DNA from: Acidimicrobiales bacterium
GTDB lineage: Bacteria; Actinomycetota; Acidimicrobiia; Acidimicrobiales; VFJN01
Direction: 5' to 3'
Assembly: GCA_035265325.1 (NCBI GenBank)
Contig: DATFOS010000172.1
Coordinates: 5,653 to 69,652, forward strand
Length of the DNA stretch: 64,000 bases
The translations under genes were made by a program, and so were the position numbers. Below are positions 48,230 to 63,184 of this stretch, piece by piece; within the stretch, counting starts at the first letter, position 1; each line of letters begins with the position of its first letter. The notes under the pieces are model-generated. The model was not told where the DNA came from and ran no database searches. It was given only the letters and a program-made list of their open reading frames with translations.

Positions 48230-48329
48230 ACCTCTCGCGAGCGCGGCACCGAACCCGCCGGTACCGTGCATTCCGCCAGCGTTGATCGCCCCACGTGCGG
48301 CCCGGCAGGGTCGTTGCGACGAGCGAACC

Positions 48330-48343
48330 GGGACCAAGGTCCC
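48330..48343. promoter_or_regulatory. DosR/DevR-type box upstream of the GNAT-USP gene
   Basis: GGGACCAAGGTCCC matches the GGGAC-N4-GTCCC core of the DosR consensus. It lies 59 nt upstream of ATG 48403. Confidence 0.6.
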
Positions 48344-48402
48344 TGTCGCGGCCGCCGTGCCCGCCCCACGCTGGGGGCGATCGCGATGTAGGAGGTGCAA
48401 CG

Positions 48403-49761
48403 ATGCCGACGACGTTCGGGACGCCCGCCGGTTCCCGCCAACTCGAGGTGCGGCCGCTCGACGACGAGGACGTCGGGCAACTGGACGCCCTGTGCCAGCG
48501 CCAGTCGTCCGACAGCCTCCGGCGGCAGTTCTTCGACCCCGCGCCGCCGACGCGCGACCGCCTCGACCGCCTCACGGCGCATGACGACGGTCGCGGGGTT
48601 GCCATCGTCGCCCTCGCCGGCGGCACGCTCGTCGGTGCCGCCCGCTACGACCGCGTCGATGCCGGCGACAGCGCCGAAGCCTGGGTGTTCGTCGACGAGG
48701 CCGTCGCCGACCCGGAGGTCGACGTCCGGCTCCTGACCGAACTCGCCCGCATCGCCCGGGAGGCCGGTATCCGCCGCCTGCTCGTCGAGGTGCACCCGCT
48801 GGACCGCGAGCTGCTCGAGACGCTCGACGCCACCCCGCTCCACACCGAGCGGCACCTCCACTGCGGCATCGTCACGGTCACCGTCCACCTGGACCCGGCG
48901 GCGTCTCGCGCCCGCCCCCAGGGTGGGGACCCGGCGGCCCTGCTCTGTCGCAGCGTCCTGGTCCCCGTCGACTGTTCGCCGTTCGCCGAGAAGGCCGTCG
49001 CCGCCGGCGACTGGCTCGCCCGCCGGCTCGGCGCCGAGCTGCACGTCGCCACCGGCGTGCTCGCCCACGACCCCTGGTGGGACGACCGCTACCTGGCCCG
49101 CATCCGGTCCACCTACCGGCGGGCGCAGACCCACCTGTGGACGCACTCGGACATCGCGGGCGGCGTCGCCCGCCTCGCCGACGACATCGGCCCCACCGTG
49201 CTCTGCGCCGCCACCCACGGCCGCTCCCGGAGCGCGTCGGTCGTCGGCTCGACCTTCCTCGCCATGGCCCGGGCGACCGACGTCCCGGTCGTCGCCGTGG
49301 GCCAGGAGGCCCGCCCGCCCCAGGCAGCCGACCTCCCGATCGTGGCCTGCGTCGACGGCAGCCTCGCGTCGGAGTCCGTCCTGCCCGGGGCCGCCACCTG
49401 GGCCCGCCGCCTCGGCGTGCCGCTGGACCTCGTCACGGTGGCCGACGCGGACGGCGGCCCGGACGCCGAGCCGGTCCGCTTCGGCGGCGCCCGGCGGGAC
49501 GCGGCGGAGTACCTGGAGGAGCTGCTCGCCGGCCCCGAGCTCGCCGGGCTGACCGCCAAGTCCGAGGTGCTCTCCGACCGTGTGGCGCCGCACCACGCCA
49601 TCGCCGACCGGCTCGCCCGCCGGCCGGCCACACTCGTCGCCCTGGCATCGCGCGCCCGCACGGGCCTGGGGCGCATGCTCGTCGGCAGCGAGGCGGCCCG
49701 CATCATCCAGGCCAGCCCCGTGCCCGTCCTGGTGCACCGGGTCGTCGGCGGCGGCGCCTGA
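48403..49761 (+). CDS. Pat-type GNAT domain fused to two universal stress protein (USP) domains
   Basis: N-terminal LEVRPLDDEDV...LRRQFF...VGAARYDRV...AEAWVFV (Pat-like GNAT), then two USP-like units (VLVPVDCSP...VPVVAVG and IVACVDGS...VPVLVHR). GGAGGTG RBS. DosR-type box 59 nt upstream. Confidence 0.75.
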   Translation: MPTTFGTPAGSRQLEVRPLDDEDVGQLDALCQRQSSDSLRRQFFDPAPPTRDRLDRLTAHDDGRGVAIVALAGGTLVGAARYDRVDAGDSAEAWVFVDEAVADPEVDVRLLTELARIAREAGIRRLLVEVHPLDRELLETLDATPLHTERHLHCGIVTVTVHLDPAASRARPQGGDPAALLCRSVLVPVDCSPFAEKAVAAGDWLARRLGAELHVATGVLAHDPWWDDRYLARIRSTYRRAQTHLWTHSDIAGGVARLADDIGPTVLCAATHGRSRSASVVGSTFLAMARATDVPVVAVGQEARPPQAADLPIVACVDGSLASESVLPGAATWARRLGVPLDLVTVADADGGPDAEPVRFGGARRDAAEYLEELLAGPELAGLTAKSEVLSDRVAPHHAIADRLARRPATLVALASRARTGLGRMLVGSEAARIIQASPVPVLVHRVVGGGA

Positions 49762-54065: not shown

Positions 54066-54719
54066 GTGACCATCCGTGTGTTCCTGCTCGACGACCACGA
54101 GCTCGTCCGAGCCGGCGTGCGTGACCTGATCGAGACCGACGGCGACATCGAGGTCGTCGGCGAGGCCGGCACCGTGGACGAGGCCATCCGCCGCGTGCCC
54201 GCCACGAGGCCCGACGTCGCCATCCTCGACGTGCGGCTGCCCGACGGCAACGGCGTCGAGGCGTGCCGCGACATCCGCTCGTCGCACCCCGAGGTGCGGT
54301 GCCTGATGCTCACGTCGTACTCCGACGACGACGCCCTGTTCGACGCCATCATGGCCGGCGCCTCCGGCTACCTCCTCAAGCAGGTGCGCTCGAATGACCT
54401 GATCGAGAGCGTCCGCCGGGTCGCCGCCGGCCAGTCCCTGCTCGACCCCGCCCTCACCGCCACGGTGCTGGAACGCATGCGGAACCCCCCGCAGCAGGAC
54501 GAGCAGCTCAAGCGCCTCACCGAGCAGGAGCGCCGCATCCTCGACCTGCTTGCCGAGGGCCTGACCAACCGCCAGATCGGCGAGCGGCTGTTCCTCGCCG
54601 AGAAGACCGTCAAGAACTACGTGTCCAACCTGCTGCTCAAGCTGGGCATGCACCGGCGCACCGAGGCGGCCGTCTACGCCGCCCGCATCGCCGAGCGCCG
54701 CGACCGCCACGCCACCTGA
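54066..54719 (+). CDS. devR: NarL/LuxR-family response regulator, DevR/DosR ortholog
   Basis: VFLLDDHELVR, PDVAILDVRLPDGNG (phospho-Asp), LTEQERRILDLLAEGLTNRQIGERLFLAEKTVKNYVSNLLLKLG. About 60 percent identical by eye to recalled DosR. Confidence 0.8.
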   Translation: MTIRVFLLDDHELVRAGVRDLIETDGDIEVVGEAGTVDEAIRRVPATRPDVAILDVRLPDGNGVEACRDIRSSHPEVRCLMLTSYSDDDALFDAIMAGASGYLLKQVRSNDLIESVRRVAAGQSLLDPALTATVLERMRNPPQQDEQLKRLTEQERRILDLLAEGLTNRQIGERLFLAEKTVKNYVSNLLLKLGMHRRTEAAVYAARIAERRDRHAT

Positions 54720-55323: not shown

Positions 55324-55337
55324 GGGCCGAAGGTCCC
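55324..55337. promoter_or_regulatory. DosR/DevR-type box upstream of the PPOX gene 54834..55286
   Basis: The minus strand reads GGGACCTTCGGCCC, 37 nt upstream of the start. The 14-mer is identical to the box at 62149. Confidence 0.5.
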
Positions 55338-58628: not shown

Positions 58629-60116
58629 TCACCCGGCCGGCTCGACCACGACCGCGGTGACCATGCCGAACATGCCGGTCTCCCGCTCGACGTGGTTCAG
58701 GATGTGGCAGTGCCAGACCCAGGTGCCGGGCCTGTCCAGGTGGACGAGCACCGAGTACCGCTCCCCCGGCGCCACGTTGACCGTGTCGGCCACGTAGGGG
58801 TTGTCCAGGGGGTACCCGTCCTTGGCCACGACCACCTGGTCGAACTGGTGGAGGTGCATGGGATGGATCTGGCTGCCCTCGTTCATGTAGTGGACGAGGA
58901 CCCAGTCGCCCTCGTCGGCGACGATCGGCGTGGTGGCCGGGAAGCTCTTGCCGTTGAGCGACAAGCCGATGACCCCGCTGTCGTTGAGCACGAGCGGCAT
59001 CTCCTGGCTCACGCGCAGGTCGGCGGGGATGGCCTCGTCGCCGATGGTCTGGCCGCGGTGCAGGTCCATCCGGCCCACGAGCAGGGTGCCGAGCAGCCCG
59101 TTCGGGACCTGCATCTGGCCGTGGTGGTGGGCGTGGTACATCGCCACCGCGGCCTCGTCGGCGGTGAAATCGTAGGTGAACGACTCACCGGGCTCGATCG
59201 ACGGCTGGGTCAGCGGGGCGACGCCGTCCATGTCGTTCTCCACGTTGATGCCGTGGAGGTGCAGGTCGGTCGCCATGGGGAGGTCGTTCTGCAGCTCGAT
59301 GCGCACCCGGTCGCCGACGTCCACCGCGATCTGGGGGCCGGGGACCATGCCGTTGTACGTCCAGGCGTCGACCGTGGTGCCCGGCTCGACCTCCCACGGC
59401 GTGATCTCGGCAGTGAGCTCGAAAACCTTGGTGCCGTCGGCCTCGACCCGGGGCTCGAGGACCTGGTTGCCGACGCCCTCGGTCTCGGCCGGGTAGGCCA
59501 GGATCGACTCGTCCATCGCCGCGCTCATCTCGGCGTACTGCTCCTCCGTCATCGTGTCGCCGCCGGCGGCCGACGAGCCGCTGTCGGACATGGCCGACAT
59601 GTCGTGGCCGGCGGAGGACATCGAGGCGCCGTCGCCGCCGGCTGCGCCGCCGATCGTGAGCGTGCCGGTCATGCCCGAGTCGGCGTGGCCGGCGATCGTG
59701 CACAGCACGTCGTAGTCACCGGGTGCCAGGCCCGACAGGTCGAGCGTCTCGCTCTCGCCGCCGGCCAGGTCGGCCGTGACGACGTCGGTGCCTTCGACCG
59801 AGAAGTTGTGGGCGGCGGTCCCGCCGTTCGTCACGGTCAGGCTGCCGCCCTCCGGCACGGTGATGGCGGCCGGGCTGATGGCGAACTCGCTCAGCGACAC
59901 GGTCACGGGGGTGCCGGCGCCGCCGGCCGTCCCGCCGTCGTCGTCGCCGCCCAGCAGCGCCACGACCGTGGCGATGAGCAGGGCCAGCACGGCGAGGACC
60001 ACGGCGAACCCGGCGAGCCCGAGGTTGCCCTCGTTCTCCGGCGCCGTCCGGGGGGAGGGCCGGGGCGGGTCACCGCTGCCATCGCCTGCCGTGACGGGGG
60101 GCTCGATCGTCTGCAC
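58629..60116 (-). CDS. membrane-anchored cupredoxin fused to a two-domain multicopper oxidase via a Met/Ser/Gly-rich linker
   Basis: TM helix. Type-1 Cu site HNF...CTIAGHADSGM. Linker MSSAGHDMSAMSDSG. MCO motifs HLHG, YHAHHH, HPMHLH, WHCHILNHVERETGM. GAGGAG RBS before GTG 60116. Confidence 0.75.
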   Translation of the reverse strand: MQTIEPPVTAGDGSGDPPRPSPRTAPENEGNLGLAGFAVVLAVLALLIATVVALLGGDDDGGTAGGAGTPVTVSLSEFAISPAAITVPEGGSLTVTNGGTAAHNFSVEGTDVVTADLAGGESETLDLSGLAPGDYDVLCTIAGHADSGMTGTLTIGGAAGGDGASMSSAGHDMSAMSDSGSSAAGGDTMTEEQYAEMSAAMDESILAYPAETEGVGNQVLEPRVEADGTKVFELTAEITPWEVEPGTTVDAWTYNGMVPGPQIAVDVGDRVRIELQNDLPMATDLHLHGINVENDMDGVAPLTQPSIEPGESFTYDFTADEAAVAMYHAHHHGQMQVPNGLLGTLLVGRMDLHRGQTIGDEAIPADLRVSQEMPLVLNDSGVIGLSLNGKSFPATTPIVADEGDWVLVHYMNEGSQIHPMHLHQFDQVVVAKDGYPLDNPYVADTVNVAPGERYSVLVHLDRPGTWVWHCHILNHVERETGMFGMVTAVVVEPAG

Positions 60117-60222: not shown

Positions 60223-60236
60223 GGGACCTTGGTCCC
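60223..60236. promoter_or_regulatory. DosR/DevR-type box upstream of the multicopper oxidase operon
   Basis: GGGACCTTGGTCCC is the exact reverse complement of the box at 48330, so it has the same orientation relative to its gene. Confidence 0.6.
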
Positions 60237-60243
60237 GGCGCGA

Positions 60244-61422
60244 TCAGGGACGGACGGCCTCGGCCGCGGCCTGGTGGGCAACGCAGAAGCGGGCGGCCGG
60301 GACGGCCACGAGGCGCTCGTCCGGGATGACGACGTTGCAGGCCTCGCAGCGGCCGTAGGCGCCGCGGGCCAGGCGGAGCAGGGCGTCGCGCACGGCGGCG
60401 ACCTCGCCGTCCACCTCGTGGAGCAGCGAGAGGTCCCGCGTGCGCTCGAACGTCTCCGTGCCCAGGTCGGCCGGGTGCTGGTCGGCGCCGCTCAGCTCCC
60501 CGACGTCCTGGCACTCGGTCATGGCGTCGAGGCCCTCGCCCCACAGTGTCCGCTGCACCGCCCGGAGGCGGTGCAACTCCGCCACCAGGCGCCGGCGGGC
60601 GATCGACGGTTCGGCGAGCGACGGCGGGGCGTCGACCGGCACCACGACGCCGTGGCCGCCGTCCCAGCGCCGGTACACGACCATCGCCCGATCGGTCGTG
60701 GGGTCCACCACGACGACGAAGGGCTCGCCGCTCAGCTCCAGGCGTTCGGCGGCCGCCGCCGGGTCGAGGACGGGCGGCGGCGGCTCGATCACGACCTCCT
60801 CGTCGACGCACCGCACGGCCTCGGCGGCCGGCGCCCGGCCGTCGTGGCGGACGAGGCCCAGTCGGCCGTCGCCGCGGTGGTGCACGACGGCGTCGGCGCC
60901 GGTCCCGAGCTCGCGGAACAGCAGGAACTCGCCGTCGAGCATCTCGAGGTCGAAGACGGCCTCGTCCAGCGTGGACTCCGCCGGCGACAGGGTCCGGCGG
61001 CGCACGACGGGCCGCTCGGGCGGCTCTCGCTCGGCCCGGGCGGCGGCGTGGGCCGGCGCCCCCCACGACCGCGCCGGCCGGCGCCCGCTCCGGTGCCGCT
61101 CGCCGAGACGGACCAGCTGGTCGTGGAGCCGTGCCTGGGCGACATCGACGGCCGCCAGGGCGGTGGCGCCCAGGGCGTGCGCCCGGACGACCCGGCCGTC
61201 GACGTCCATGGTCGCCCGCGCCGTCCACCGGTGGTCGTCCGACGGGTCGTCCGACCGGGCCACGCGCAGCCCGACGTGGATGACGGGCGCGGGGGCGACC
61301 CGGACGAGCCGCCGCAACTTGGTCGTGGCGTACGCCTCCACGATGGACGGCGTCCCGACGCCGAGTCGAAGCTCGACGGGCGGCGGCGGTGGCGGCCGGT
61401 CGCGGCGTGAGGTGATCGTCAT
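60244..61422 (-). CDS. Rv0079-like ribosome-hibernation-factor homolog with C-terminal TraR/DksA-type zinc finger
   Basis: N-terminal HPF-like fold and two S30AE-C-like repeats (FLLFRELGTGADAVVHHRGDGRLGLV and FVVVVDPTTDRAMVVYRRWDGGHGVV), then GAYGRCEACNVVIPDERLVAVPAARFCVAH. AGGAGGG RBS before ATG 61422. Confidence 0.7.
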   Translation of the reverse strand: MTITSRRDRPPPPPPVELRLGVGTPSIVEAYATTKLRRLVRVAPAPVIHVGLRVARSDDPSDDHRWTARATMDVDGRVVRAHALGATALAAVDVAQARLHDQLVRLGERHRSGRRPARSWGAPAHAAARAEREPPERPVVRRRTLSPAESTLDEAVFDLEMLDGEFLLFRELGTGADAVVHHRGDGRLGLVRHDGRAPAAEAVRCVDEEVVIEPPPPVLDPAAAAERLELSGEPFVVVVDPTTDRAMVVYRRWDGGHGVVVPVDAPPSLAEPSIARRRLVAELHRLRAVQRTLWGEGLDAMTECQDVGELSGADQHPADLGTETFERTRDLSLLHEVDGEVAAVRDALLRLARGAYGRCEACNVVIPDERLVAVPAARFCVAHQAAAEAVRP

Positions 61423-61481
61423 GTAACCCTCCTGAGGTCGAGCGGATCGGTGGAGGTCGGGGCCGGGTGGGCGACGGGCCG

Positions 61482-62090
61482 TCAGGCCACGCACGAGATC
61501 GAGATGGACTCGTCGTCGACGCCGGCGGCGCGGAAGGCTTGGTGGATCCGGGCGGCGATGGCGCCGTCCGACGTCGACGCCGCCGCAGGGCGGTGCACCA
61601 CGACCCGCAGGTCCCGCCCGCGCCGGTCGACCGCGGCCCGCACGTCGCCGCCCGCCCCCTGCAGGCCGTCGTCGACGACGCGCCGGGTGACGATGGCGGC
61701 GGTGGCGGCCAGGTCGTTGAGGTGCCGGCGGACCGCGTCCTCGCAGGCGTCCACGACGTCGCCGTCGCTCACGGCCACGGTGGTCCAGCGGGCGAAGGGG
61801 TTGGGCCAGCCGGCGCCGTGGACGACGAGGGGCACGTGCCGGCGGACGGCGCACGTCGTGCCCTGCTCATGGACCACCGGGTGCGGCTCGTCCTCGGACC
61901 GGACGTCGACCGCGACGTCGACGCCGCCGGGCAGGTCGAGCGGGCAGGCATCCCGGTCGAGCCCGACGCAGGGGCGGGACGGCCCGGCGTCGCGGTCGAA
62001 GCACCGCACGACCTCGTGGCCGGCGGCTCCCAGGCGGGCGGCCGTGGCGTCGGCGAGGCCCGGCGTCGTCTCGATGCAGAGTATGCGCAT
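61482..62090 (-). CDS. hypothetical Cys-rich protein (202 aa)
   Basis: High GC3 in frame and ordinary composition. Begins MRILCIETTPGLADATAARLGAAGHEVVRCF. Seven Cys residues. No family recognised. Confidence 0.55.
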   Translation of the reverse strand: MRILCIETTPGLADATAARLGAAGHEVVRCFDRDAGPSRPCVGLDRDACPLDLPGGVDVAVDVRSEDEPHPVVHEQGTTCAVRRHVPLVVHGAGWPNPFARWTTVAVSDGDVVDACEDAVRRHLNDLAATAAIVTRRVVDDGLQGAGGDVRAAVDRRGRDLRVVVHRPAAASTSDGAIAARIHQAFRAAGVDDESISISCVA

Positions 62091-62148: not shown

Positions 62149-62162
62149 GGGACCTTCGGCCC
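62149..62162. promoter_or_regulatory. DosR/DevR-type box in the divergent region between 61482..62090 and the zinc-finger-USP gene
   Basis: GGGACCTTCGGCCC lies 35 nt upstream of ATG 62198. Confidence 0.5.
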
Positions 62163-62197: not shown

Positions 62198-63184
62198 ATG
62201 GCACACGACACCGTCCACCAGTGCCCGTACTGCGAGCTCCGCTTCGCGTACCGGCCGGAGCTGGCCGATCACGTCGCCGCCGACCACCCCCGGCCGGTCG
62301 ACGATGACCTGCCGGCCGCCACCGCACCCGCCGGGACCATCACCGTCCCGCTCGACCCCGCCCACCCGCCGACCGTCGCCCTGCCGGTCGCCATCGCTCT
62401 GGCCCGCCCGACGGGCCTGGCCGTCGAGATCGTGGCCGCCCCCGCCGTCGGCCTGCCGACCGCGCCCTACCTCGCCGCGGCCCGCCGGCGGGTCGTCGAG
62501 GCCGGCGTCGTCGCCGTCCGAGCCGTCGAGCTGATGGGCGACGCCGCCGCGGCGATCGTCGCCCATGCCGCCACCGGCCGCACCCGGCTCCTCTGCCTGT
62601 CCACCCACGCCTGGGGCGTGGTCGGCAAGGGGGCGCTGGGCAGCGTCAGCGACCGGATCGTCCGCAGCTCTCCCGTCCCGGTCGTCCTCGTCGGCCCCGC
62701 CGTCCTGCACCCCGGGCAACCGATCCGTCGGGTGCTGGCCGGCGTGGACGGCTCGACGCTGTCCCGCCAGGCGGTCGACGTCGCCGCGGCCTTGGCCGGC
62801 CGGTTGGGCGCCCGGTTCGACCTCGCCTACGTCGTCCGGCCCAACGACCCCTACGACGACGCGCCCGACGCCGCCCTGCTCTGGGGCGAGCAGCACCTGC
62901 AGCCCCCGTGGGACTACGAGGTCGTCCACGGCGACGACCCGGCCCGCACGCTGGCCGACTTGGCGGGCCAGGCCGGCGACACGCTGGTGGCGGTCGGCAC
63001 GCACGGCCGCACCGGCCTGCCCCTCGCCGTCCTCGGCAGCGTGGCCGTCGGCCTCGCCGACCAGTGCACCGGGCCGGTCCTCGTCCTGCCGGCGACGGCG
63101 GCCCCCGGCGCCGGCACCACCGGCACCACCGACATGGCCACAGCCACCCCACGGCGCGCCGCTCCCGTGGAGGGAGAGCAGTGA
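62198..63184 (+). CDS. C2H2 zinc finger fused to tandem USP domains
   Basis: CPYCELRFAYRPELADHVAADH fits C-x2-C-x3-F-x5-L-x2-H-x4-H. It is followed by two USP-like units. GGAGGGAGGA RBS. DosR-type box 35 nt upstream. Confidence 0.7.
   Translation: MAHDTVHQCPYCELRFAYRPELADHVAADHPRPVDDDLPAATAPAGTITVPLDPAHPPTVALPVAIALARPTGLAVEIVAAPAVGLPTAPYLAAARRRVVEAGVVAVRAVELMGDAAAAIVAHAATGRTRLLCLSTHAWGVVGKGALGSVSDRIVRSSPVPVVLVGPAVLHPGQPIRRVLAGVDGSTLSRQAVDVAAALAGRLGARFDLAYVVRPNDPYDDAPDAALLWGEQHLQPPWDYEVVHGDDPARTLADLAGQAGDTLVAVGTHGRTGLPLAVLGSVAVGLADQCTGPVLVLPATAAPGAGTTGTTDMATATPRRAAPVEGEQ

Follow-up and report, generated by a model that had tools for sequence, protein, structure and literature searches.

RafH, a dormancy factor studied in the tuberculosis field and of solved structure (MSMEG_3935; Rv0079 or DATIN; PDB 8WHX and 8WI7), is regulated by DosR, attaches to the 70S ribosome and acts as an inhibitor of translation (PMC10799931). 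Its HPF-type N-terminal domain is followed by a basic linker, which contacts the anti-Shine-Dalgarno region, and by a duplicated S30AE_C domain, and the intramolecular pseudo-dimer described for this duplication separates RafH from long HPF (PMC10799931). A second group of hibernation proteins, the chimeric HPF isoforms, consists of fusions in which HPF carries a Csp, SigE or CBS domain (bioRxiv 10.1101/2025.11.04.686544). The DksA/TraR family (E. coli DksA, 1TJL and 5VSW; P. aeruginosa DksA2, 4IJJ) comprises secondary-channel factors of RNA polymerase. For DksA as defined in E. coli, P. aeruginosa and R. sphaeroides, the coiled-coil tip motif DxxDxA is an indicator of function, with its second Asp and the neighbouring Ala being critical (PMC4010833). 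Among the more distant members of the family, single knock-outs of yteA, yocK and ylyA in B. subtilis left rRNA promoters unaffected (PMC3113569), and in E. coli a dksA mutant was not complemented by Chlamydia trachomatis DksA (6PTG; PMC9126822).

The 64-kb window described here (the whole stretch of DNA that was analysed) comes from an uncultured high-GC actinobacterium and holds a gene in which a RafH-type protein continues into a DksA-like one. The order of HPF N-domain, basic linker and duplicated S30AE_C pseudo-dimer is that of RafH/Rv0079, and so is the setting in a DosR-type island. RafH ends at about residue 258, whereas the window protein goes on through a proline-rich junction of 9 residues into a DksA-like module of 121 aa, and its relatives occur in Acidimicrobiales MAGs rather than in Mycobacterium. 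The chimeric HPFs are similar in that they are joined to a stress-protein domain and lie away from the canonical hpf operon, beside stress genes, but the partners which that preprint names do not include DksA/TraR. They also lose the C-domain, whereas the window protein retains the full duplicated C-domain, so that HPF chimeras gain a new partner as well as a new topology, in which the partner follows an intact C-domain. The reading that we favour, at a probability of roughly 45%, is that a single DosR-induced polypeptide may jointly deliver one module for ribosome hibernation and another directed at RNA polymerase.

The fusion gene and its reading frame

The gene and its ribosome-binding site are placed as follows.

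60244..61422, reverse strand: RafH-DksA-like fusion CDS, a single ORF of 392 aa ending in a TGA stop codon at 60244-60246
61428..61433, reverse strand: Shine-Dalgarno sequence AGGAGG, read from the sequence, with a 5-nt spacer to the ATG at 61420-61422

The ATG at 61420-61422 is also where the N-termini of short-form relatives fall in the family alignment. The original prediction had described one uninterrupted frame and had asked for a check on a lost stop or frameshift. That the single ORF is a sequencing or assembly error confined to this one window is extremely improbable: nothing was found in favour of an error beyond the general observation that in high-GC DNA long ORFs arise spuriously on other strands and frames, and several results stand against it. 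One frame alone has coding character (GC3 0.87-1.0) across the entire ORF, the junction included; an identical protein, P0001, is encoded on a separate ENA metagenome contig by a gene that differs by one synonymous base; and the same architecture is found in about 45 divergent clusters and at 8 loci in 7 GTDB species-representative MAGs. We exclude a frameshift or lost stop because these clusters, down to 41% identity, share the in-frame fusion. The claim of a single in-frame ORF therefore holds, and the fusion of a RafH-type factor to a DksA-like protein is real and conserved.

Pfam searches gave S30AE_C and zf-dskA_traR matches in one ORF, as had been expected, with Ribosomal_S30AE (PF02482, residues 29-110) at 22.1 bits falling slightly below its cut-off of 23.7, and every peptide quoted in the original prediction was found in the translation. 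The suggestion that an internal start might yield a separate DksA-like protein gained no support, as not one of the six in-frame GTG, TTG or ATG codons (residues 260, 261, 280, 283, 289 and 301) is preceded by a proper Shine-Dalgarno sequence or conserved in the family. No second copy of RafH or of the DksA-like module occurs elsewhere in the 64-kb window. Scans for sigma-70 promoters and intrinsic terminators around the fusion gene, which are uninformative at 77% GC, found nothing.

The RafH-type part

Residues 1-265 divide into three segments.

61081..61377, reverse strand: HPF/RaiA-type N-terminal domain, residues 16-114 (AF2 model, Foldseek, Pfam and RafH alignment)
61015..61080, reverse strand: disordered basic linker, residues 115-136 (pLDDT 37-53; aligned to the RafH linker)
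60637..61014, reverse strand: duplicated S30AE_C domain, residues 137-262, a RafH-type pseudo-dimeric C-terminal domain (Pfam, RafH alignment, model pLDDT 82-94)

The AF2 model of the whole protein (pLDDT 83) contains three folded modules. In the N-domain the modelled elements run beta1-alpha1-beta2-beta3-beta4-alpha2 (strand 16-20, helix 27-42, strands 47-56, 66-74 and 77-85, helix 88-114; pLDDT 86-97), and Foldseek matched the domain to HPF/YfiA structures with TM scores of 0.8-0.86, normalised by target. Several relatives score above the Ribosomal_S30AE cut-off that the window protein narrowly misses (P0015, 28.2; P0048, 33.5; P0173, 41.2). In the linker W120 is kept and the remainder is degenerate in the window protein. 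The Pfam family Ribosom_S30AE_C (PF16321) matched two stretches (E 2.3e-20), and the AF2 model folds this region, residues 141-262, as two alpha plus 4-strand units.

Comparison with the solved M. smegmatis protein bears out the earlier identification with Rv0079. Residues 30-265, comprising N-domain, linker and two S30AE_C repeats, aligned with residues 16-258 of RafH in 8whx_w (E 8.6e-37), and a Foldseek search with the AF2 model matched 8wi7_w over 256 aligned columns at 37% identity (E 2.3e-24). Aligned to 8whx_w, the window protein keeps equivalents of the RafH residues that contact rRNA, uS9 and the anti-Shine-Dalgarno region at K21, R24, H35, R39, D59, R66, R84, R91 and W111. The equivalents of R28, R37, R75, R88 and W96 and of the linker residues R120, P121 and F124 are not kept, which we count against the favoured reading; by the family consensus, several of these contact residues persist in other family members.

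The DksA-like module

The junction and the module that follows it have these features.

60610..60636, reverse strand: proline-rich junction PVDAPPSLAE, residues 263-271, linking the RafH body to the DksA-like module
60247..60609, reverse strand: DksA/YteA-like module, residues 272-392 (helices 272-298 and 317-352 flanking a tip loop at 299-316, then zinc knuckle and C-terminal helix)
60442..60483, reverse strand: near-invariant tip motif D314-QHPADLGTETFE-R327 (family and profile alignments)
60274..60348, reverse strand: putative zinc knuckle C359-x2-C362-x17-C380-x2-H383 (PF01258; C359, C362 and C380 invariant)

Judged by alignment, the C-terminal module is an entire stand-alone DksA/YteA-like protein: homologues of 120-140 aa, common in Acidimicrobiia, cover 94-98% of the module and start directly after the proline-rich junction. 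Its assignment to the TraR/DksA family with His as fourth ligand, made in the original prediction, is upheld by the Pfam match to zf-dskA_traR (PF01258), which at residues 354-382 scored 29.3 bits and so passed its cut-off of 24.9, by the yteA match and by the DksA-like fold of the model. The best NCBIfam match was TIGR02890 yteA (E 2.4e-23; model positions 31-122 of 159), which with 83 bits stayed below its cut-off of 134.4; the dksA equivalogs fell far under theirs (NF033459, 35.7 against 105; TIGR02420, 24.7 against 115.5). When the window protein was compared with solved structures, residues 302-385 matched Chlamydia DksA (6ptg, E 6e-8), and a profile of the module matched 6ptg over the whole module (4.5e-22), 4ijj (6.5e-13) and 1tjl (8.6e-10). 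The significant matches of this PDB profile search were all DksA/TraR-family chains, which are RNA-polymerase factors where characterised, and none was a ribosome-bound chain. The module model (pLDDT 82) is a coiled coil with a globular knuckle, its helices lying at 2-27 and 46-82 in module numbering, and it superposes on DksA2 4ijj with a TM score of 0.72 (normalised by query) and on DksA in the RNA polymerase complex 5vsw_M with one of 0.58.

These comparisons place the module nearest to YteA-like and Chlamydia-type DksA relatives rather than to canonical DksA or TraR. It shares with E. coli DksA and DksA2 a predicted coiled coil and knuckle, the spacing C-x2-C-x17-C-x2-X and the equivalent of DksA Asp74 (D319, invariant in the profile alignment), and it differs from them in a fourth ligand that is His or Asp, an HxxDxG tip, a short C-terminal helix and having nothing N-terminal of the first helix. 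With the YteA-like proteins (TIGR02890; B. subtilis YteA, YocK and YlyA) and Chlamydia DksA it shares the tip [DN]-x-H-[PQ]-A-D-x-G-[ST]-[ED]-x-F-[ED]-R, and the sequence DQH[PQ]ADxGTETFER is near-invariant among fused proteins, stand-alone proteins, the Firmicute YteA-like protein P0051 and Chlamydia DksA. The long C-terminal tail of YteA is missing from the window module, which keeps three cysteines, whereas Chlamydia DksA has lost its cysteines.

The canonical Cys4 finger, CxxC-x17-CxxC, is absent, as are its zinc-free C2/C1 variants, and CxxC-x17-CxxH stands in its place. The fourth position is H in 41 and D in 6 of the fused proteins, and H in 96 and D in 20 of the stand-alone relatives (n=116); it is never Cys. 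The Cys3-His motif that had been singled out is thus present, but it is not peculiar to this protein, and a special adaptation to the fusion is rejected, since Cys3-His/Asp is the norm of the whole actinobacterial clade, fused or not. Such a Cys3 plus His/Asp knuckle could bind zinc.

The tip bears on the partner of the module. H316-P-A-D319-L-G321 aligns with D-E-A-D-L-A of DksA2, so that the second Asp alone is kept and DxxDxA is not intact, and we count this HxxDxG tip, the failure of Chlamydia DksA to complement and the unaffected rRNA promoters of the B. subtilis knock-outs against the favoured reading. Departure from DxxDxA and the complementation result for Chlamydia DksA, the nearest solved relative (PMC9126822), would suit instead a module that serves the hibernation factor and not RNA polymerase, either as a zinc- or redox/NO-sensitive switch gating ribosome binding and release or as an extra arm on the platform, bS1 or the mRNA exit region. 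A switch of this kind would accord with the link between DksA zinc and cysteine content and the sensing of reactive oxygen and nitrogen species in work cited within PMC9126822, and with the known response of mycobacterial ribosome hibernation to zinc. The short junction would hold the module beside the platform-bound C-domain, and in the short forms described below the module stands in place of S30AE_C, as if it had taken a ribosome-side role. Against a purely ribosomal role, the fused module retains all invariant residues of the stand-alone family, tip included, and therefore probably keeps that family's own partner; the "housekeeping" stand-alone copies, among them that beside the ABC1 kinase, lie in unrelated, non-ribosomal neighbourhoods; and the PDB matches were confined to DksA/TraR-family chains. 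We consider this alternative somewhat unlikely.

Conservation of the fusion and other architectures

The search for the same fusion in other genomes, proposed at the outset, recovered the roughly 45 clusters (90% identity clustering; 41-78% identity to the window protein) and the MAG loci already mentioned, far more than chance would give. The distribution is narrow, amounting to three clusters at 50% identity, in uncultured Acidimicrobiales. At the junction, P266 and P272 hardly vary, if at all, across the family alignments. A four-cluster offshoot (P0048, P0049, P0173 and P0318) has lost S30AE_C and consists of the HPF N-domain and the DksA-like module; these short forms fit the chimeric-HPF pattern fully, with the C-domain lost and a stress domain in its place. 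Taken together, the number of in-frame clusters, the conserved junction and the short form that keeps both modules are evidence, drawn from comparison of sequences, that the fusion is under selection.

The joined form might nevertheless be a neutral by-product without a special role, in which adjacent, co-regulated dormancy genes lost the intervening stop, or in which one of the six internal start codons gives a separate DksA-like protein. RafH relatives are fused to many island genes, with CBS, SnoaL_2, F420H2 reductase-like and baeRF domains among the partners, so the fusing of co-regulated neighbours may be common and need not mean mechanistic coupling. In a neighbor-joining tree of the DksA modules, a topology without bootstrap support, DksA-only proteins are nested inside the fused clade and found in USP/CBS islands, P0059, for example, lying between USP genes; the module can therefore work detached. 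Neutrality is, however, hard to square with an in-frame fusion that persists at identities as low as 41% and whose junction residues are conserved, with a derived form that drops the middle domain yet keeps the N-domain and the DksA-like module joined, and with internal start codons that lack both a proper Shine-Dalgarno sequence and family-wide conservation. We hold this explanation to be distinctly unlikely.

Some relatives, of 470-620 aa, carry an N-terminal extension that by eye had seemed cold-shock/OB-like; the assignment was rejected, there being no Pfam match and no meaningful PDB sequence match, and the SnoaL_2 part alone is supported.

Genomic setting and probable DosR control

The following features of the surrounding island concern the expression of the fusion gene.

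54066..54719, forward strand: DevR/DosR orthologue, a 217-aa response regulator and the presumed island regulator (Pfam Response_reg and GerE)
62149..62162, unstranded: DosR-box-like palindrome GGGACCTTCGGCCC, within the spacer that separates the 202-aa ORF from a divergently oriented tandem-USP gene (forward strand, start 62198)
61482..62090, reverse strand: 202-aa upstream ORF, 59 nt before the fusion gene
60223..60236, unstranded: perfect palindrome GGGACCTTGGTCCC, 7 nt past the fusion stop, in the 127-nt spacer before a multicopper oxidase gene

The DosR orthologue matched 3c3w_A over its full length (E 1.6e-77), with VraR next best (1.4e-44). The DosR consensus is TTSGGGACTWWAGTCCCSAA (PMC2275270). 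Palindromes of the form GGGVCNWWNGBCCC number 4 in the window against 0.48 expected, and one of the four falls within the divergent promoter region that lies upstream of the fusion gene; enrichment is limited to this stricter palindrome with an A/T centre, and a loose search for the DosR core allowing 2 mismatches gave fewer matches than chance. The earlier claim of a dormancy setting behind a DosR-type box agrees with the orthologue and the palindromes, and the fusion gene may be placed under DosR control on these sequence features. The palindrome at 62149..62162 is a probable operator of the transcription unit that includes the fusion gene. That at 60223..60236 is likely a DosR-type operator of the next unit, which would make the fusion gene the last in its own.

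The 202-aa ORF, which has no Pfam family match, is probably co-transcribed with the fusion gene. As a conserved partner it was rejected, being absent beside other fusion loci save for one weak match 5 kb off in locus L002. Other neighbours in the window island include USP, CBS, Pyridox_ox_2 and LDH genes, and those of the other fusion loci include USP, Rv2632c-like, HSP20, NiFe hydrogenase, alanine dehydrogenase and RNR genes. The responsiveness of DosR islands to hypoxia and NO also speaks for the zinc or redox switch considered above.

Proposed function

What is directly observed is the protein's anatomy, its homologies, the fact that the fusion is conserved and its place in a dormancy island; around these observations the favoured reading, of one DosR-induced protein directed at both machines, can be set out stepwise. 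By analogy with the solved M. smegmatis complex, the RafH N-domain would plug the 30S decoding cleft and the pseudo-dimeric C-domain would sit on the 30S platform, and the two together would hold ribosomes as inert, protected 70S monosomes. The DksA-like module, whose antiparallel coiled coil carries a near-invariant acidic tip, most likely retains the activity of its stand-alone relatives, which we infer to be insertion into RNA polymerase's secondary channel. Translation and transcription could then be damped together, at a fixed 1:1 ratio, by a single DosR-induced protein, and the short, conserved proline-rich junction would keep the polymerase-directed module near the ribosome platform. 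In this scheme the binding of ribosomes, of zinc and of RNA polymerase by the fusion protein is predicted from its relatives.

A more ambitious version makes the protein a physical coupler. With the RafH part on the 30S platform, the coiled coil would plug an RNA polymerase, docked by the mRNA exit site, at its secondary channel, and ribosome and polymerase would be stored as one inert, protected particle in hypoxic dormancy; or ribosome binding would sequester a polymerase regulator that is freed on wake-up. We regard this version as a long shot. If it were true, the protein would be the first single one to hibernate both machines, and the YteA-like DksA branch of Gram-positive bacteria would gain a function.

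Gene fusions are classic "Rosetta stone" evidence for two proteins acting in one process. Here a tuberculosis-field dormancy factor of solved structure is joined to a DksA-family member, and this raises the hypotheses of DksA-like action on RNA polymerase in actinobacteria and of a physical coordination of transcription and translation shutdown in dormancy. The YteA-like DksA branch seems to be part of the hypoxia/dormancy programme and to have a functional tie to ribosome silencing, a view to which the fusion, the short form derived from it and the stand-alone copies residing in islands all point. The original prediction had called the architecture unrecognised, and this stands in part: the literature searched holds no description of a RafH/S30AE-DksA fusion, but the arrangement is not unique to the window, and relatives already bear the label "DksA / RaiA" in IMG.

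A conserved single-frame fusion

The RafH-type hibernation factor and the DksA-like module are encoded in one reading frame, in a region of 76 to 80% G+C:

60244-61422, minus strand: fusion ORF, 392 codons, TGA stop

A Shine-Dalgarno sequence (AGGAGG, 5-nt spacer) precedes the ATG. The stop-to-stop ORF in this frame extends up to 61854; we preferred the ATG of the 392-codon ORF because the starts of all short-form relatives coincide with it in the alignment and because the stretch 5' of it overlaps another gene. GC3 was 0.87 to 1.0 in one frame in every 30-codon block, including the junction-spanning blocks 241-270 and 271-300, and showed no sign of a frame change anywhere in the ORF; the frame is uninterrupted in every aligned family member as well. 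The lost stop or frameshift raised in the original prediction as a way in which two genes could appear as one finds no counterpart in these data, and we consider it extremely improbable that the single ORF is an artefact.

The fusion is genuine and has been conserved: among 5.8 billion proteins searched, 51 relatives were recovered, sharing between 41% and 78% identity with the window protein. When these and the window protein were scanned with sub-profiles, all three modules were present in 45 sequences (44 clusters plus the window copy), and a further 4 relatives were N-terminally cut fragments spanning the junction, where P266, P272, and A275-R-R-R-L279 are conserved. With one genome taken per GTDB species, the fusion occurs at eight loci, seven of which (six MAGs) are labelled Acidimicrobiales or Acidimicrobiia; the eighth lies on a 1.8-kb contig binned as Micromonosporaceae. 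Recurrence in other genomes, a check proposed with the original prediction, is thereby established by the 44 clusters and the eight loci. An ENA contig approximately 99.8% identical to the window encodes an identical fusion protein with one synonymous difference.

The RafH part

As predicted, Pfam matched Ribosom_S30AE_C twice (E 2.3e-20) and zf-dskA_traR above its cut-off (residues 354-382, 29.3 bits versus 24.9); the Ribosomal_S30AE match expected alongside them (residues 29-110) fell just short, at 22.1 bits against a cut-off of 23.7. The likeness to Rv0079 held up: in a PDB sequence search, residues 30-265 aligned with residues 16-258 of Mycobacterium smegmatis RafH (8whx chain w; E 8.6e-37), which is MSMEG_3935, the Rv0079 orthologue under DosR regulation (PMC10799931). 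An AlphaFold2 model built from 44 family sequences (mean pLDDT 83) comprised the following segments.

Segments of the modelled window protein
Residues 16-114: HPF N-domain, beta-alpha-beta-beta-beta-alpha
Residues 115-136: basic linker, disordered
Residues 141-262: two alpha-plus-four-strand units
Residues 272-298: long helix 1 of the DksA-like module
Residues 299-316: tip, poorly defined
Residues 317-352: long helix 2
Residues 354-390: knuckle and short C-terminal helix

The two units at 141-262 are arranged as in the published description of the RafH C-domain pseudo-dimer (PMC10799931). RafH was also the top Foldseek match in the PDB (8wi7_w, 256 aligned columns, E 2.3e-24), HPF/YfiA N-domains matched with TM 0.8-0.86 (target-normalised), and the whole model additionally matched Pseudomonas aeruginosa DksA2 and RNA polymerase-bound Escherichia coli DksA. 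When the alignment was mapped onto published contacts, about half of the listed RafH contact residues were kept; the linker motif is degenerate, with W120 alone retained.

In RafH, the N-domain fills the decoding cleft, the linker rests on the anti-Shine-Dalgarno sequence, and the pseudo-dimeric C-domain sits on the platform between uS11 and bS1, keeping ribosomes as 70S monosomes (PMC10799931). Given the strong homology to a protein whose complex has been solved, the window protein likely binds the ribosome, and its N-domain and C-domain would be expected at these sites, keeping 70S monosomes; details may differ.

The DksA-like module

In NCBIfam, residues 301-390 were nearest the YteA subfamily TIGR02890 (E 2.4e-23, 83 bits, under cut-off), the dksA and traR models matching far more weakly, and a PDB sequence search aligned residues 302-385 with Chlamydia trachomatis DksA (6ptg; E 6e-8). 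Modelled alone (pLDDT 82), the module matched DksA2 over 116-118 of its 121 residues (TM 0.72, query-normalised) and RNA polymerase-bound DksA with TM 0.58. Stand-alone homologues of 120-140 aa, found at about 70 GTDB loci and in more than 100 database clusters, align to residues 272-392 over 94-98% of their length with 50-67% identity and begin (MDxDxARxRL...) exactly where the junction ends; judged by these alignments, the module corresponds to a whole protein in its own right.

The zinc knuckle, C-x2-C-x17-C-x2-[H/D], is common to fused and stand-alone members. Its fourth position is His in 41 fused proteins and 96 stand-alone ones, and Asp in 6 and 20, respectively; a fourth Cys was found only in a Firmicute YteA-like outgroup protein (P0051). 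The Cys3-His variant originally described is thus correct for the window protein but is a trait of the clade rather than a peculiarity of the fusion.

The most conserved stretch of the module, DQH[PQ]ADxGTETFER (residues 314-327), recurs in the same outgroup protein and, as SQHQADQGTDTFDR, in Chlamydia DksA, where the equivalent stretch lies mostly within the disordered coiled-coil tip of the 6PTG crystal (PMC9126822). The module profile alignment places HPADLG opposite DEADLA, the DxxDxA tip of DksA2, making D319 the equivalent of DksA Asp74, whereas His316 replaces the first Asp and Gly321 the Ala. Asp74 and Ala76 are functionally critical tip residues of DksA, and an intact DxxDxA has been put forward as a marker of DksA-like function (PMC4010833). 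The module keeps the DksA fold and the key Asp but matches the family-defining DxxDxA only in part.

Architectural variants and history

Among 1.84 billion 50%-identity representatives, the full fusion forms three clusters (P0172, 607 aa; P0001, identical to the window protein, 392 aa; P0045, 385 aa). Beyond these, most listed matches reach no further than the RafH part of the profile; their lengths cluster around 255-290 and 465-490 aa, and the DksA module was absent from those checked by Pfam. Matches with E <= 1e-30 number 460 in total, and the fusion is therefore a narrow branch within a large RafH family. Also abundant in this library is a SnoaL_2-RafH form that lacks DksA and is about 470 aa long (e.g., P0175).

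In a neighbour-joining tree of the module, calculated without bootstrap, one clade held all fused modules and 11 DksA-only proteins, and 32 stand-alone "housekeeping" proteins, whose genes adjoin those for an ABC1 kinase, a hydrolase, and a MaoC dehydratase, fell outside it. Within the fused clade, the gene for the DksA-only protein P0059 is flanked by two tandem-USP genes with CBS genes nearby, and in two others (P0052 and P0053) the junction motif is immediately preceded by PAVEVVARG, which is strand 1 of the RafH N-domain; these two look like internal deletions of a fusion that lost the RafH body. We read this as a single fusion involving a dormancy-island paralogue of the DksA-like gene, after which domains were gained and lost.

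Many relatives are lengthened to 470-620 aa by an N-terminal extension, consisting in some of a roughly 75-aa segment with no Pfam match and in others of this segment followed by a SnoaL_2 domain. One Acidimicrobiales MAG (SMAG_U1022) has two paralogous fusion genes (L004 and L005), one with the extension (478 aa) and the other without it (about 364-395 aa). In four clusters (P0048, P0049, P0173, and P0318) the HPF N-domain is joined directly to the DksA-like module without S30AE_C, so that, in our reading, the link between these two domains is kept in two architectures. P0048 and P0049 nest beside a CxxD subclade of full fusions in the module tree, and HSP20 and USP genes lie near P0318.

Other RafH relatives have different partners: two CBS domains (P0312), an F420H2 quinone reductase-like domain (P0252), or a baeRF release-factor-like domain (P0207). 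RafH is therefore a hub for fusions, and any claim of a special RafH-DksA coupling has to be moderated accordingly. We regard a neutral fusion, and/or separate expression of its parts, as improbable.

Genomic setting

On the near-identical ENA contig, gene prediction placed the fusion gene among four USP genes, a CBS protein, two Pyridox_ox_2 proteins, a lactate dehydrogenase, a multicopper oxidase with a cupredoxin domain, and a NarL-type response regulator. About 1 kb past the window end, the same contig encodes a GAF-GAF-HisKA_3 kinase, the putative partner of the island's DevR/DosR orthologue.

Features of the island
48295-49758, plus strand: ORF with a weak GNAT match and C-terminal USP, DosR-like palindrome at its 5' end
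48330-48343: palindrome, at the 5' end of the GNAT-USP ORF
54066-54719, plus strand: response regulator, DevR/DosR orthologue (M. tuberculosis DevR/DosR 3c3w, E 1.6e-77, full length)
55324-55337: palindrome, 38 nt upstream of a Pyridox_ox_2 gene
58629-60116, minus strand: multicopper oxidase immediately downstream of the fusion gene, with N-terminal Cupredoxin_1 and a signal/TM-like segment
60223-60236: perfect palindrome, GGGACCTTGGTCCC, 7 nt past the fusion-gene stop, in the spacer leading to the multicopper oxidase gene
61482-62090, minus strand: Cys-rich 202-aa ORF upstream of the fusion gene, no Pfam family match
62149-62162: palindrome, between the 202-aa ORF and a divergently oriented USP gene
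62198-63181, plus strand: tandem-USP protein, N-terminus MAHDTVHQCPYCELRFAYRPELADHVAADH

The next best match of the regulator was VraR (1.4e-44). The palindrome GGGVCNWWNGBCCC occurs four times in the window against 0.48 expected, a count reached in 0 of 100 shuffles, and its core resembles the mycobacterial DosR box TTSGGGACTWWAGTCCCSAA (PMC2275270). With its DevR/DosR orthologue and four palindromes, all a short way ahead of USP, Pyridox_ox_2, or multicopper oxidase genes, the window contains a putative DosR-type regulon island. Because the fusion gene follows the 202-aa ORF by 59 nt, with no DosR-like box of its own, it probably closes a two-gene unit that is expressed from the 62149 region. 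This supports, at the level of inference, the dormancy operon behind a DosR-type box that the original prediction envisaged.

Dormancy-type neighbours recur at other fusion loci: tandem USPs, Rv2632c-like proteins, HSP20, NiFe hydrogenase, alanine dehydrogenase, class II-type ribonucleotide reductase, ferritin/rubrerythrin, and RtcB/archease. No counterpart of the 202-aa ORF adjoins those loci. For a hypoxia island, the multicopper oxidase is an unusual constituent, and a SnoaL_2 gene lies divergent to the GNAT-USP ORF on the opposite strand. The tandem-USP protein at 62198-63181 begins with C-x2-C-x12-H-x5-H, a C2H2-like knuckle ahead of its USP domains; Pfam matched the USP domains only.

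Proposed function

The DksA fold, the Asp74 equivalent, and the almost invariant tip suggest that the module may act on RNA polymerase, and the near invariance of the tip from Firmicutes to Chlamydia implies a very conserved target. We tentatively propose a dual-target model in which a single protein, induced by DosR, both silences ribosomes and acts on RNA polymerase; we assign it a probability of roughly 45%, since the tip departs from DxxDxA, an E. coli dksA mutant is not complemented by Chlamydia DksA (PMC9126822), and rRNA promoter activity in Bacillus subtilis was unchanged in single yteA, yocK, and ylyA knock-outs (PMC3113569). The module might instead serve the hibernation factor itself, either providing a zinc/redox switch or adding a further ribosome contact, which we think somewhat unlikely. 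A further, quite improbable reading is a physical particle in which ribosome and RNA polymerase hibernate together.

Among the papers searched, none treats S30AE or RafH together with DksA. Chimeras with Csp, SigE, and CBS domains, but not with DksA, are reported in a preprint from 2025 that deals with the evolution of HPF (bioRxiv 10.1101/2025.11.04.686544). We read the fusion as a variant of these chimeric hibernation factors, with a partner that is unusual and informative. The proteins themselves are already publicly deposited, with names that are either generic or double: many relatives are labelled [quoted passage not shown] in IMG, and MAG copies [quoted passage not shown] at NCBI.
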